NCBI GenBank assembly: GCA_964013405.1
Contig: CAXGWI010000035.1
Coordinates: 1-26,077, forward strand
From: an uncultured Myxococcales bacterium
GTDB taxonomy: Bacteria > Myxococcota > UBA4151
Direction: 5' to 3'
Length of the DNA stretch: 26,077 nucleotides
In this document: positions 17,370 through 22,509 of the stretch, one piece after another
Numbering within the stretch: position 1 is the first letter of the stretch
How the letters are laid out: every line of letters begins with the position of its first letter
Translations under genes and position numbers: made by a program
The notes under the pieces: generated by a model
Databases searched by the model: none
What the model was told of the DNA's origin: nothing
What the model saw: the letters and a program-made list of their open reading frames with translations, nothing else

Positions 17370-18554
17370 CTAAAACGTGGTTTCATCGCCGGCGCAACGC
17401 ACGGTGAAGTTACCGCCCTTGGCACTGTGGATATGGATATCACCACAATCGTTCCGCCCCCGGGCCGGCCAGGTCCACGCGGGACAGCCTGCGCTGGGTG
17501 CGCCGTTGGTGCCGTAGACCCATCCCGTGGCCCCTAAACGGTCAACCACCTCCTTGACTGGGTGACAGTGGCGATTGTCGTCACCGAAGCTCAACAGGCT
17601 CACCCGAGGGGCTGTCGCGGCGACGAATGCCTGGGAACTACTTGTCCGGGAGCCATGATGCCCCCCCTTAAGTACATCCACACGCCCCACCTTCTGCAGC
17701 ATCAAGCCTTCCACATCGGGACTCCCCAAGCCGCCGCCGGTCACATCCCCCATCAACAGCATCGTGAAGCCGTTGAGACGCAGTTCAAGGACCACCGACC
17801 GGGCATTGTCATCGGCCGTTGAAGCCGGCACGTCGCCCGATGCAGGGACGATACCGGCCCCGAGGACTTCGCCGGCCCGGACCAAGGTCCGCATCTCAAA
17901 GCCGCCGAGACGCTCAAAGTCATCGGCCGGCTCGATCTGCTGGCGCCCAGAAGCCACCGACCGATACGCTGCACAGGCCTGACTGGTGCAGATATCCGCG
18001 TCGCCACTGTCCCGCCACTGACGAACATACAAATCATCGGCCGTGCCCACCTGCCCATCGGCTCCAGCGACCAACGCAGGAAAGCCACCGATGTGGTCCG
18101 CATCCATGTGGGTTGCTACGGCCAGATCCAAGGCGACGACACCATAACCTTCGAGGGCTTGGCGCAGGGCTGGGGCCGCCTCGGGCGGGCCTGAATCCAC
18201 TAGAATCGCTTCGCCCGCCGGCGTCTGTATCAGCGTGGCATCGCCCTGGTCCACGTCGAGCACGTAAACATTCAATTGCCCCGAAACCACTTGGATCTCA
18301 GCCGCAAAGTCATCCACGGCCAAGGCATAACGTCCTGGGGGACGCACAGGCAGTTCCAGTCGATAGCCATCAGAGACGCTCTGGAGACTCAATTGCTCAC
18401 CGTCGTAGGTTGCGATGGCCAGGCCTGGGGGAAGCCCCAGCAAGTTGATGACACTCGGCCCACTGTCGGGAACCACGGGGTGTGAGACCGTCAATGGCAA
18501 CGGATTGCAGGCCAAGATGAGGGCAAAGCTGGAACTGAAGATGAGGCGGGCCAT
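17370..18554 (-). CDS. ComEC/Rec2-type metallo-beta-lactamase-fold hydrolase, lipoprotein
   Basis: Lipobox LILA-C; DVDQGDATLI, THMDADHIGG (HxDxDH), N.RS.V, LMGD, HHGS, S.G..N.HCHP. It lacks the ComEC membrane channel domain. Confidence 0.88.
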   Translation of the reverse strand: MARLIFSSSFALILACNPLPLTVSHPVVPDSGPSVINLLGLPPGLAIATYDGEQLSLQSVSDGYRLELPVRPPGRYALAVDDFAAEIQVVSGQLNVYVLDVDQGDATLIQTPAGEAILVDSGPPEAAPALRQALEGYGVVALDLAVATHMDADHIGGFPALVAGADGQVGTADDLYVRQWRDSGDADICTSQACAAYRSVASGRQQIEPADDFERLGGFEMRTLVRAGEVLGAGIVPASGDVPASTADDNARSVVLELRLNGFTMLLMGDVTGGGLGSPDVEGLMLQKVGRVDVLKGGHHGSRTSSSQAFVAATAPRVSLLSFGDDNRHCHPVKEVVDRLGATGWVYGTNGAPSAGCPAWTWPARGRNDCGDIHIHSAKGGNFTVRCAGDETTF

Positions 18555-18599
18555 GGGGGTCTCTTGTCGGTCTGTGGCCTTTGGTGCAACCTTCCACCC

Positions 18600-20180
18600 A
18601 TGGAACGCCTCCTCTTTTCAGGTCGAAACCTCATTCTTTGGTTGAGCCTAGCGAGCCCATGGCCTGCCCTTGCGTTCTCCCCAACGGTGGAGAGCACGGA
18701 TGCTGTCGTCCAGCATCGCGGCACCCTGGTGGCAGCCACTGCGACCGGCCTGTATCGCTGGGCTGATCCTGGTTGGTCCCTTTGGTACCCATGGACGCTG
18801 AGGGCCCAGAGCGCCGCCCCGATTCGGGACGAGCAAACCCTGGATGTGCTGGAGCGGCAGCGGGCTTTCGATGAACTCTTCGAGGAGCTCCTTCCCGTCT
18901 TTGGCGAAGCGGAGGCGGAAGCCCAGACCGAGGAGCTTCTCGGCTATCCTCGACCGCCCCCTGCCCTGGTCCCGCTGGGTGAAGACGCAGCGGATTTCGT
19001 CCGCCATCCTGCCGTCGTCCATGCCCTTGCCAGTCACGGCTCCGACGTGTGGGCCTGCACGACACAGGGCGTCTATCAGGTGGGACTTTCGAGCCGCCAC
19101 CATCTCGACCTGGGCCGAGTCTGTCTCGACATGACGTTGGGCTCAGGGCTCTTGGTCGTCGCGACGGATCGAGGTGTTTTCCGGCGCCAGCCCGGACGTC
19201 CGTTTGAACGACTGGTTCAAGAAACCCCCGGTGCTTTGGTGGGGCTTGCTCTTAGCAAAGGCCGCGTTTTCGCCGCGACCTCGACGGGCGTCTTCGAAAT
19301 CGACGCCCGAGCCGTACGCCGCTCGGGAGCGATTCTGGATGGCTTTGGACGCCTTGGCGAAAGCCTCGTCGGGGTCACTGAGGGGCGGCTGATGTGGATT
19401 GGTGACTCGGGCCGTTCCCGCCCCAGCGGTGAGATCCTAGACGGCGACTTTGTGCGGGCAGACGACGGCCAACTGCTGATTACCTCGGAAGGTGTGTGGC
19501 GGTGGGAGAATGATCAACTGGCTCGTCTCGGCGTGCCCGTGGGTAGCAACCAGATTCGAGATGCCGTCGTCCGGGGTGGATTGTGGCTAGCGACCGCGGA
19601 AGGGGTGGTCCAGCCCCCGGCAGAGGAGGCCCCGCTTTCGAGCCTTGGTGTCATTCTCGACGCGCGCGAAGCGCAGATCTGGACCCAACGACTGATCGGC
19701 TCCTACAGCCAGCGGGGCCTCAGCATCGAAGCCCTGAGCGAGAAACCGGCATTGAGTCGCTGGTTACCCGACCTCAATGTGTCGTTCACAACGGACACTC
19801 GTCGAGGCTTGGGCGTGCTTGATTTAGAACGAATTGCCGACGAATTTGATCTCGAACTCGACGACCTCGAAGAATTGGACGAAGATCGCCGCCAAGATTT
19901 CATCGATCAAGACTGGCGTCTGATGATCGGTCTGACATGGAGACCAGCGTGGCGGTTTGGCGAGCGGGTAAGAAACGAGGCAGCGGCCCGGTCCCTCGTC
20001 ATGCAAGAACGTCGCCGCATCGCCCGGCGTACCTCCAAGCTTCTCGTCGCTCACCTCGCCACCGAACGGGCGATGATCCTTCGCCCACCACGCAGTCTAC
20101 GAGCCGCTGTGATGCGCATCCTTAAACAAGACGAGCAGCGGGCCCTCTTGGAAGGCCTGCTTCACCAGGAGTTCCCATGA
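18600..20180 (+). CDS. Exported beta-propeller-like protein with C-terminal half-TolC-like domain
   Basis: Signal peptide ending ALA-F; repeated blades (LVAATATGLY, VWACTTQGVY, LVVATDRGVF, VFAATSTGVF, LLITSEGVW, LWLATAEGVV); C-terminal ~170 aa paralogous to 20177-20788. Confidence 0.72.
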   Translation: MERLLFSGRNLILWLSLASPWPALAFSPTVESTDAVVQHRGTLVAATATGLYRWADPGWSLWYPWTLRAQSAAPIRDEQTLDVLERQRAFDELFEELLPVFGEAEAEAQTEELLGYPRPPPALVPLGEDAADFVRHPAVVHALASHGSDVWACTTQGVYQVGLSSRHHLDLGRVCLDMTLGSGLLVVATDRGVFRRQPGRPFERLVQETPGALVGLALSKGRVFAATSTGVFEIDARAVRRSGAILDGFGRLGESLVGVTEGRLMWIGDSGRSRPSGEILDGDFVRADDGQLLITSEGVWRWENDQLARLGVPVGSNQIRDAVVRGGLWLATAEGVVQPPAEEAPLSSLGVILDAREAQIWTQRLIGSYSQRGLSIEALSEKPALSRWLPDLNVSFTTDTRRGLGVLDLERIADEFDLELDDLEELDEDRRQDFIDQDWRLMIGLTWRPAWRFGERVRNEAAARSLVMQERRRIARRTSKLLVAHLATERAMILRPPRSLRAAVMRILKQDEQRALLEGLLHQEFP

Positions 20181-20788
20181 TGAGATTATTCCCTTTGGCA
20201 GCCGTGTGCGCCTTCGCCCTGCCATGGACGGCTCAGGCCGCGCCCAGCGCCGAGGTCCGACGCGTGTTGGATCAATTCCGCAGCGAGCCAGCGATTCGAG
20301 ACGTTCAGAAGAAGGCAGCTGCCTACGCTGCTGCCCACCCCGCTGAAGTCGATGGCTGGCGAACCCGGGCTCGAAAAGCACACTGGCTTCCCGAACTGAG
20401 GCTCTCCATCGGGCGGGACCAGAAAAGCGATATCAATCAAACGACCACCTCCGGCACCGGTGACCCCCGGGCAACCACGGGGACAGATGAGCATATGGAG
20501 ATGGACGTACGACTGCGTTGGGAGTTGAACAAGCTCGTCTACGCACCGACCGAAGTCCAACTGCGCCGCGAGACGGTCGCGGCCTCCCGGCAACGGGACA
20601 CCTTGGTGGCGGAGGTCACCAAGTTGTACTTCGAGCGGCGACGGGCCCAGGTCCGGTTGCTTCTCGACGAGCACCTCGACGTGGAAGCCCGGGTCAAACA
20701 AGAACTCAAGGTCGCCGAACTCACCGCTTATCTCGATGGACTCACCGGCGGATGGTTCAGCAGCCAACTCAAGAAGTCGGGCCGGTGA
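20177..20788 (+). CDS. Exported half-size TolC/outer-membrane-efflux-repeat-like protein
   Basis: AGGAG SD and ATGA overlap; signal peptide ending AQA-A; RARKAHWLPELRLSIG, MDVRLRWEL, RDTLVAEVTKLYF, LDGLTGG in the order of one TolC repeat. Confidence 0.68.
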   Translation: MMRLFPLAAVCAFALPWTAQAAPSAEVRRVLDQFRSEPAIRDVQKKAAAYAAAHPAEVDGWRTRARKAHWLPELRLSIGRDQKSDINQTTTSGTGDPRATTGTDEHMEMDVRLRWELNKLVYAPTEVQLRRETVAASRQRDTLVAEVTKLYFERRRAQVRLLLDEHLDVEARVKQELKVAELTAYLDGLTGGWFSSQLKKSGR

Positions 20789-20796
20789 CGGGACCG

Positions 20797-22509
20797 ATGA
20801 AAACGGCTGCCTCCTTGACGCTGCTGCTGCTTGCAGCCTGCATCGACACCCATTTGGAACCCATCGACATGACGGGTCCGGCCATCGTCAGCGAAAGCCC
20901 AAGCTCAGGATCGGAGATTAGCCTCCAGCCCACTTGGAATCTCACTTTTTCAAAACCGCTGTACCGCCCGTCGGTCGAGCGCCCGGCTTACACGGTCTTG
21001 TTGACGACCCGCTACCAATTGGATGCCAACGGGAGCCCTGAGCTCGATGACTTCGGCCAACCGGAACCCCTGATGTCTGAGGCCATGAAGGATGACTTTC
21101 ATGCCGGAACCGGAGGGCTCGACAGTGACTCTTACCGGGCCCGGACTGTTCCTATATCCGTCACGCTCGATGACGGGGGCACCCAGCTCATCGTCACCGC
21201 GCTCGAGGAGTTGCAACCGTTGACCGAGTATCAATTGGTCTTCTCGCAACAGATCCGGGACACCGACGGCAACCGGCTCCTTGTCAGTGACTGCCAACCC
21301 CATATCATTAACAAACCACCGGACTGCAGCCAGGATGAGGAGCAGGACTTCGAATACAAGCTGGTCTATACCACTGAGGCTGGCCCGGCCCTGCTGCTGG
21401 CCAGCGACCTTCCCGGGGATCTGGAGGGTCCGCTGCCTGCCGGTGCGGTTCCCGTCAACCGGAGCACCTTTCAACTTCGTTTCGACCGAGCCCTTTCGCC
21501 AGCACCCGCTGGAAGCATCCTGCTGAAAGTGAGTACGGAGAACAACATCACCGTCCCGCTGGAGCCGGAGGTCTCTGGCGACACCGTGACTTTGAACCTG
21601 CCGAGCCTTGCGAGCCAACCCGGGCATCACGCGTTCTGTGCCAACGGCCTCGACGACTGGCGCCTCTGCCCAGACACGGCCTACGAGATCGTCGTCACTT
21701 CCAGCCTCACCGACCTGGAGGGGGCCTCGGCCCGATCCACGACGCGGGCGTTCAGAAGCACCTCCGAGCCGGACGATGCGGCGCCTGCGGTGGACGAAGC
21801 CGTCGTCGTCCAAGTGGGTGAAACCCAGGCAACCCTTGTTTGGACGACAGATGAGCCCTCAAGCACCGAGTTACTGATGGATGGTGTGACTCAAATAGGA
21901 ACGCCGTCCACATGTGCCCCAGGCGATCCATGCACACATGAATTTAAGCTCACCGGGCTCGAACTGGGTCGCTCCTATTCCGTCACAGCCATCAGTCGGG
22001 ACTTGGCCCTCAACACTTGGTCTAGCGAGCCGATCGATGTGGTGCCGGTGGAGTTGCCGGATGTGGTCATCACCGAAGCCCATGCAAATGCCCGGGAAGA
22101 AGGTGGCGTGGGCGAGTTCGTCGAGATCTACAATTACGGTGAGGTCGAACTCGACTTGGGCGGTTGGTCCCTTGTTCGAGTAGGCACGGATTCCACAGCC
22201 TCCCTTCCCGAAGGAACGCTTCTGCCCGCACGGAGCATCGCCGTTCTTGTCGACGCCAGCTTTAATGGGGCCCCCTATCCAGGCCTGAGCCCCAGCGCGA
22301 AAATCGAGGTGGACCTCTTTGGCTTGGTCAACAGCAACCTCTATCTGAATCTAATCGACAATGAGGGGCGAACCATCGATGCCTCGTCGGAACTCGACTC
22401 CAACGTCGATGGCCGGAGCCTGGTACGAGACCGGGTCGACACCGACACTTTTTGCGATGGCCCCCCCACCCCGGGTGAATGGCAGGCGAACAGCTGCTCT
22501 GGACGATGA
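20797..22509 (+). CDS. Lipoprotein with two bacterial Ig-like (Big_5/SbsA-type) domains, an FN3-like domain and a C-terminal lamin-tail domain
   Basis: Lipobox LLLAA-C. Ig-like: P.IVSESP..G......LTFSKPL and L.P.TEY.L....IRDTDGN, repeated as FDRAL...LCPDTAYEIV...TDLEG. FN3-like: ATLVWTTDEPS...HEFKLTGLELGRSY. LTD: VVITE...GEFVEIYN....DLGGWSL...GRSLVR...PTPG. Start is ATG 20797 or the overlapping GTG 20785. Confidence 0.82.
   Translation: MKTAASLTLLLLAACIDTHLEPIDMTGPAIVSESPSSGSEISLQPTWNLTFSKPLYRPSVERPAYTVLLTTRYQLDANGSPELDDFGQPEPLMSEAMKDDFHAGTGGLDSDSYRARTVPISVTLDDGGTQLIVTALEELQPLTEYQLVFSQQIRDTDGNRLLVSDCQPHIINKPPDCSQDEEQDFEYKLVYTTEAGPALLLASDLPGDLEGPLPAGAVPVNRSTFQLRFDRALSPAPAGSILLKVSTENNITVPLEPEVSGDTVTLNLPSLASQPGHHAFCANGLDDWRLCPDTAYEIVVTSSLTDLEGASARSTTRAFRSTSEPDDAAPAVDEAVVVQVGETQATLVWTTDEPSSTELLMDGVTQIGTPSTCAPGDPCTHEFKLTGLELGRSYSVTAISRDLALNTWSSEPIDVVPVELPDVVITEAHANAREEGGVGEFVEIYNYGEVELDLGGWSLVRVGTDSTASLPEGTLLPARSIAVLVDASFNGAPYPGLSPSAKIEVDLFGLVNSNLYLNLIDNEGRTIDASSELDSNVDGRSLVRDRVDTDTFCDGPPTPGEWQANSCSGR

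Follow-up and report, generated by a model that had tools for sequence, protein, structure and literature searches.

Outer-membrane factors (OMFs) are described as trimers of two-repeat chains that export their substrates via an adaptor. The TolC/OEP protomer is a duplicated unit in which each half contributes two strands, and three protomers form a 12-stranded barrel. CsgG, Wza and alpha-hemolysin are multi-chain barrels assembled from small subunits, and in competence systems built from PilQ, ComEA and ComEC the pore is a secretin and the metallo-beta-lactamase (MBL) domain of ComEC is joined to a channel. The accessible part of one source describes the OMF repeat as two strands, a long helix and two aligned helices, occurring twice per protomer (PMC8277102), and the origin of the OMF barrel is called disputed in the available portions of two others (PMC11762307; 10.1101/268029). 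ComEC's beta-lactamase-like domain is given as a nuclease in the accessible text of PMC12455585. The lamin-tail domain (LTD) of the extracellular nuclease ExeM of Shewanella aids activity in vitro and is dispensable for DNA degradation in vivo, its role being given as of unknown function in the available part of that paper (PMC6085458); excerpts of two further papers place an LTD together with an MBL in the haloarchaeal ComA homologue Hlac_1867 (PMC5118699) and an LTD in a DNA-degradation locus (PMC8289736).

Here we analyse two coupled genes, A and B, in a 26,077-nucleotide stretch of DNA from an uncultured Myxococcales bacterium (the window); each very probably encodes a single OEP-like repeat. 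The A and B units have the same order of elements as the OMFs TolC, OprM, OprN, CusC and CmeC (PF02321), namely a short helix, a helix ending in LP, two amphipathic strands, a long helix and a return helix, together with a predicted export signal. They differ from these proteins in carrying one repeat per chain rather than two, in a shortened helical hairpin (Table 1), in a helix before strand 1 that is 8 residues shorter, in the N-terminal propeller or HhH domains present in their family, and in neighbourhoods where no adaptor or RND genes were found. The likeness to competence systems lies in the HhH_3 domain fused to relatives and in the ComEC-type MBL encoded next door, whereas the candidate pore is TolC-like rather than a secretin, and the MBL domain belongs to a predicted lipoprotein of its own that lacks the Competence channel. 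LTD nucleases such as ExeM and Hlac_1867/ComA likewise pair an LTD with an MBL-fold hydrolase tied to extracellular DNA, as far as the accessible text of both papers goes (PMC6085458, PMC5118699), but hold both domains themselves, whereas here two genes, known from sequence, flank the predicted pore. Several chains share one pore in CsgG, Wza and alpha-hemolysin, as proposed for A and B; the unit here is OEP-like, and the searches run gave no match to any of the three.

Gene layout and predicted folds

Both open reading frames lie where the sequence-only reading had placed them, the motifs it quoted are present, and the coupling it described is real: the stop codon of A and the start codon of B share the ATGA at 20177-20180. 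A scan for promoters and terminators returned nothing above chance level.

Table 1 Coordinates of genes and predicted domains at the A/B locus, in positions of the window
Feature	Position	Strand	Remarks
Predicted lipoprotein, ComEC-type metallo-beta-lactamase (nuclease-like) domain	17370..18554	-	TIGR00361 E 1.4e-19, C-terminal part only
Gene A, 526 aa (ATG at 18600)	18600..20180	+	Predicted signal peptide, beta-propeller, C-terminal TolC/OEP-like repeat
Beta-propeller of A, residues 33-337	18696..19610	+	AlphaFold2 model; Foldseek; PF23366 E 4.8e-6
Single repeat of A, residues 355-521	19662..20162	+	Profile alignment, HMM, AlphaFold2
Gene B, 203 aa	20177..20788	+	Predicted signal peptide 1-21, one TolC/OEP-like repeat
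Amphipathic beta-hairpin of B, residues 73-114	20393..20518	+	AlphaFold2; predicted to cross outer membrane; coevolution i+j=187
Helical hairpin of B, residues 124-190	20546..20746	+	34 residues below canonical OEP repeats
Predicted lipoprotein, Big_5 + lamin-tail (LTD) domains	20797..22509	+	8 bases past B; conserved partner

For both proteins the signal peptide, the fold and the amphipathic hairpin are predicted features. The AlphaFold2 model of B, built from a 72-row alignment, has a mean pLDDT of 86.5 and consists of helices at residues 40-51 and 55-68, strands at 73-89 and 98-114, and helices at 124-163 and 169-190. These strands bear out the amphipathic hairpin expected by the sequence-only reading: across 72 homologues, positions 74, 76, 78, 109, 111, 113, 115 and 117 are hydrophobic in 76-100% of sequences, and the strand positions between them are mostly polar or charged. 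An N-terminal hydrophobic stretch is present in 292 of 363 family proteins, compared with 11 of 363 for a control stretch. Coevolution across 709 domains (effective number 482) was strong along the hairpin register i+j=187 on the polar face, with mean z of 5.4 and 3.8 by two methods, the second of which was unconverged, and it confirms the predicted hairpin and helix packing in the family. A second register on the hydrophobic face, i+j=185 (z 3.1 and 2.2), persists in both random halves; since diagonal contacts within one twisted hairpin yield the same 185/189 pattern, we do not count it towards a barrel. A frameshifted single TolC gene was also considered, and was ruled out by the signal peptide that B itself carries and by the conservation of the split.

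The model of A (57-row alignment) has a mean pLDDT of 80.8, with values of only 45-61 across the hairpin and acidic loop. The propeller that the sequence-only reading had assigned to A is recovered both by this model and by Foldseek, which matches it to many solved propellers at E about 1e-8; it would comprise about seven blades, is predicted to lie in the periplasm, and contains an acidic helical insertion at residues 79-114. The repeat of A then runs through a helix (355-371), a strand (391-398), an acidic loop, a second strand (439-446), a long helix (452-494) and a return helix (500-521). Over 129 columns, the last 176 residues of A match the profile of the B family with E 1.6e-5 and a probability of 79%. 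An HMM made from the C-termini of 39 upstream genes, all at other loci and with the window's A and its closest relatives (L001-L005) left out, recovers A at E 9.7e-8. These results confirm the last ~170 residues of A and B as paralogues, each a single TolC/OEP-like repeat.

Similarity to outer-membrane factors

The link to TolC is weak but consistent: none of the tests (Pfam, PDB sequence, Foldseek or profile) passed a curated threshold, yet Pfam, profile and Foldseek agree. PF02321 is the sole Pfam match of B, scoring 14.3 bits where the cut-off is 22 (E 0.037), and does not match A; 11 of 72 family members match it at E<=0.5, the best at 5.9e-4. Against 14 OEP repeats drawn from the genomes analysed here, the family profile gave E 9.6e-4 (reversed control E 0.5) and the A-type profile E 4.7e-3, both at low probability (22% and 7.5%). 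When the profile was searched against five genomes of the Myxococcota family f10, which do not have the genes, its best match was a two-repeat OEP protein in three, a chance match in one, and absent in one.

Foldseek placed OMFs in all of the top six rows for B, the best at E 0.015 and TM 0.31 and none at E<=0.001. The comparison with PF02321 and TolC structures that the sequence-only reading had proposed gave a Foldseek ranking led by OMFs, a sub-threshold PF02321 score and a weak Foldseek E value; its claim of one OEP-like repeat per gene is upheld by profile, HMM and AlphaFold2 results together, on a homology that is weak. In a further structure comparison, 152 residues of the B model superimposed on residues 1-192 of TolC 9tg4 (Z 5.9, rmsd 4.7); three rows ranking above it span just 67-71 residues of the helical hairpin, and OMFs alone align over 150 residues with the strands included. 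A wide structure search was unspecific, having no OMF in its top 50, a best Z of 7.1 on helical bundles, and some phage portals at Z 5.9-6.5. PDB sequence searches matched nothing relevant, NCBIfam assigned no family to B, and 29 of 30 ESM Atlas matches were unnamed clusters, the remaining one being HhH-fused.

Spacing between conserved residues separates the family from canonical repeats. The distance from a conserved Y to a conserved L has a median of 35 residues (n=752) compared with 69-71 in the 12 measurable OEP repeats, and the P-to-P distance before strand 1 is 17 compared with 25, while strand 2 is followed by the conserved Y after 36 residues, close to the 38-39 of OEP repeats. The roughly 17 residues missing per helix probably correspond to the far end of the coiled coil, where the duct is closed and the adaptor is met; with a periplasmic coiled coil that falls 34 residues short of TolC-type repeats, the family appears to lack the adaptor-docking tip. 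Repeat number, tip length, score and partners all set A and B outside the OMFs, yet each most likely acts like half of one.

Distribution and architecture of the family

The profile search recovered 3,904 clusters at 50% identity, 3,139 of them at E<=1e-10, whose members are named 'hypothetical' or carry names borrowed from fused domains. The family is mostly single-copy and occurs in three phyla: as an A+B pair or B alone in Myxococcota, as one propeller-fused gene in Omnitrophota, and as a bare repeat in the third. It matched 120 of 251 Myxococcota genomes, or 119 after removal of one canonical OEP (genome G180 enters only the totals of the family, LTD-partner and MBL counts over these 251). 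Among Omnitrophota, 113 of 121 genomes matched, nearly all with one copy, and 27 of the best 30 loci were propeller-fused single genes; in the phylum of genome G252, labelled 'Deltaproteobacteria', 79 of 87 genomes matched, and the best 30 loci had no propeller and no A gene within 1.5 kb flanks. None of the 95 f10 genomes had the family, and the close LTD partner was likewise not found in the f10 genomes searched; if f10 is the best-studied family of Myxococcota, this may explain why these proteins have been overlooked. No description of the family was found in the literature searched, which consisted mostly of papers readable without a subscription.

Pairing was assessed at the 88 loci with at least 3 kb upstream among the first 100 loci. 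An A-type gene directly precedes B in 53, eight are propeller-fused, and 27 are neither. Fusions also occur: P0198 carries the propeller, the A repeat and the B repeat on one chain, and by HMM count an A-type hairpin lies ~41 residues ahead of the B repeat in 69 of 120 long homologues compared with 0 of 73 controls. In the fused two-hairpin chains four strands are predicted, as many as in a TolC protomer, which suggests that A and B belong to one assembly at 1:1. The conserved gene pair and the natural fusions agree with the earlier supposition that A and B act together; single-gene forms would have to homo-oligomerise. The sequence-only interpretation as a whole is partly supported, and it overlooked the missing coiled-coil tip, the single-gene forms and the membership of the flanking lipoprotein genes in the module.

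Several variants deserve mention. A large group of ~600-residue proteins (P0249-P0363) combines a propeller, a short A-type hairpin, a proline-rich linker and a full B repeat that contains two conserved cysteines, and has the form of a re-fused four-strand protomer. In P0123, an LTD domain with a PEP-CTERM-like tail continues in frame into a propeller-fused member, either as a fusion or as merged genes. At eight Polyangia-labelled loci (L056, L058, L060, L061, L066, L072, L077 and L078), A consists of the propeller and hairpin with short or no helices, two PilZ genes follow B, and parA/parB and folD lie nearby.

Neighbouring genes

The MBL gene, a conserved partner, is divergent from A, and the two are separated by just 45 bases (18555-18599), so that promoters would have to overlap the genes. 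A lipobox was recognised by eye in the LTD and MBL proteins of the window and in 4 of 4 LTD and 5 of 5 MBL proteins examined besides. The LTD gene, just downstream of B, recurs at 42 of the 80 Myxococcota loci, at 25 of the 30 in the G252 phylum and at 13 of 79 metagenome loci, and the MBL gene at 9, 22 and 6 of these, respectively; the Myxococcota loci were hand-picked and mostly best-scoring, and the metagenome loci are often short. In Omnitrophota, LTD, MBL and HhH were found at 0 of 30 loci within about 1.5 kb. Across the 251 Myxococcota genomes, a close LTD-partner match occurs in 84, of which 80 carry the family, at a cut-off of E<=1e-28 that was set after viewing, with about a dozen seeds from these same genomes and with kin that are non-independent. 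The family occurs without a close LTD partner in 39 of 119 genomes, 128 of the 251 have neither, and two of the four that have the partner without the family start at the first bases of a contig. Co-occurrence of the MBL is specific only for the 21 genomes with the strongest matches (E<=1.2e-67), every one of which carries the family, weaker homologues being widespread (193 of 251 genomes). The six best solved relatives of the MBL are all ComEC chains (best E 1.4e-18), and the phosphorylcholine esterase CbpE is a further, weaker match (E 1.5e-4).

Of 709 family copies, 85 carry a fused ComEA-type HhH_3 domain, 67 of them with a G[IVL]G motif, and these fusions are scattered over 12 separate clades of a 193-leaf tree, with 10 changes; B of the window has no HhH domain. 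Replacement of ComEA by the HhH fusion was ruled out, since other HhH genes are kept in 5 of 5 HhH-fusion genomes. The genome of the window has a ComEC with its own nuclease domain on another contig, a small ComEA-like gene, three secretin genes and, elsewhere, one two-repeat TolC; at the locus itself the ComEC membrane channel is absent and the MBL domain stands alone. Among 295 neighbour representatives, no adaptor or RND protein was found at E<=1e-5 (100 loci, 308 clusters, with 13 under 70 aa omitted and representatives trimmed to 420 aa). Orphan OMFs exist, and a missing adaptor neighbour is by itself a weak argument.

A candidate pore and alternative explanations

We tentatively favour a reading in which A and B form an adaptor-independent oligomeric pore in the outer membrane that may admit DNA, or pieces of DNA, handled by the flanking lipoproteins. 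Its components differ in strength: an outer-membrane oligomer is probable and a hetero-oligomer of A and B is somewhat likely, whereas an exact 3+3 ratio of A to B is conceivable yet doubtful, and a role related to DNA is likewise put forward with reservation. A and B would be exported through Sec before their chains make contact through the helices and insert their hairpins as one shared barrel with two strands per chain. Six chains would give twelve strands if TolC geometry holds, as 3A+3B here and as homo-oligomers in single-gene lineages. The short helical barrel would terminate without gate or adaptor. Like the N-termini of OMFs, the propeller or ComEA-type HhH domain at the start of the chain would be periplasmic. 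The lipoproteins might then dock on the pore and cut or hold the substrate, with the ComEC-type domain cutting DNA and the Big_5/LTD lipoprotein docking.

DNA handling is the preferred reading because three independent hints, HhH, MBL and LTD, converge on one pore-like protein. Counting against it are the Omnitrophota, in which 30 loci showed no such partners, the 39 of 119 genomes without a close LTD-partner match, the lack of an HhH domain in the window's own B, the likeness of the MBL to CbpE, the dispensability of the LTD in ExeM in vivo, and a lumen that is not basic (the lumen-facing strand positions have a mean net charge of +0.19 over 8 positions, and +1.0 in HhH fusions). The genome also has ComEC, a ComEA-like gene and secretins, and HhH-fusion genomes keep other HhH genes, so that nothing requires a second route for DNA. 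A bolder reading seems to us rather unlikely: that single TolC repeats form a new class of channel with a shortened open end, be it a homo-hexamer, a 3+3 hetero-hexamer or a trimer of re-fused pairs, which would import DNA by a tethered ComEA-type ratchet and a partner nuclease as a second entry beside the secretin and would show in living form what TolC was like before it duplicated internally.

The same gene content can be read without any passage of DNA. The oligomer could be a pore or platform that exports the Big_5/LTD and MBL lipoproteins or anchors them at the surface, a minority possibility that draws on the steadiest neighbours being predicted lipoproteins rather than transporters, on the near-constant presence of the family wherever the LTD partner occurs (80 of 84 genomes), and on the non-basic lumen; it leaves the HhH fusions unexplained, and among Omnitrophota the gene is retained by 113 of 121 genomes although 30 loci there showed no such neighbours. 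Near-universal single-copy presence in two small-genome phyla (113 of 121 and 79 of 87) resembles housekeeping and would suit a ring that acts structurally or as an envelope anchor and encloses no open channel, held in the outer membrane by its hairpins while its propellers or HhH domains bind ligands in the periplasm. The exchangeable N-terminal modules, and a Polyangia-labelled A that keeps the hairpin with short or no helices, point the same way; the conserved polar and charged strand face, as in a water-filled barrel, and homology to a channel family argue otherwise, and we regard such an anchor as unlikely.

The remaining two explanations concern the TolC likeness itself. Resemblance by convergence, with some other assembly that could be portal-like or filamentous and possibly soluble, would fit the uniformly weak similarity scores, the commonness of helix-hairpin-helix arrangements, the plain helical bundles in the higher-Z structure rows, and the tendency of amphipathic strands to look alike by environment, as noted in the available part of one source (10.1101/268029). 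We consider it very unlikely because the sequence matches keep the order and spacing of motifs over ~100 columns (LP before strand 1; 36 versus 38-39) and OMFs alone align over 150 residues including the strands. The reading of A and B as an ordinary OMF split in two, which would work in efflux or type I secretion with the ABC-2 transporter encoded two genes away (15580-17345), takes the two repeats in two coupled genes as one TolC protomer and has the nearby ABC-2 genes in its favour. It is largely refuted and highly improbable: the coiled-coil tip is missing family-wide, no adaptor was found among the 295 neighbour representatives, the ABC ATPase cluster recurs at only 5 of 81 loci, single-gene lineages exist, and the genome has a normal TolC.

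On the pore reading that we favour, a one-repeat family of ~3,900 clusters, close to core in two phyla and common in a third, has homo-oligomeric, split and re-fused forms coexisting, which would allow a direct test of how the TolC barrel originated and assembles, and its single-gene members, small at 200 residues, lend themselves to structure determination. Should its function be the one that the partner genes indicate, the family would also point to an unrecognised way for DNA through the outer membrane of lineages that are poorly cultured.

Other genes near the module

Several other genes recur around the module. An 802-aa predicted lipoprotein (10592-13000, +) with cysteine-rich segments, a C-terminal sorting-like tail and no clear Pfam family has homologues near the half-TolC gene at L001, L002, L004, L005, L010, L088, L089 and L103, which represent several families, and may be a further part of the module. 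At five loci of one lineage (L006, L007, L008, L016 and L034), the genes directly upstream of A encode TonB, ExbB, ExbD and a TonB-dependent receptor, possibly marking a context of energised uptake. The yebC and ruvC genes occur within 7 kb at 15 of 100 loci, often as yebC-ruvC-ruvA-ruvB after the module (for example L092-L094, L098-L101 and L103), and polA lies just downstream at 6, following the module in small-genome Myxococcota and some Omnitrophota. The window also encodes a 442-aa protein with 12 DUF4215 (myxobacterial cysteine-rich) repeats (13556-14884, -), and a Phospholipase-D-type nuclease-like protein (G000:C109:9161-11212, +) has two HxK motifs, recognised by eye, with an HhH_3 domain between its halves.
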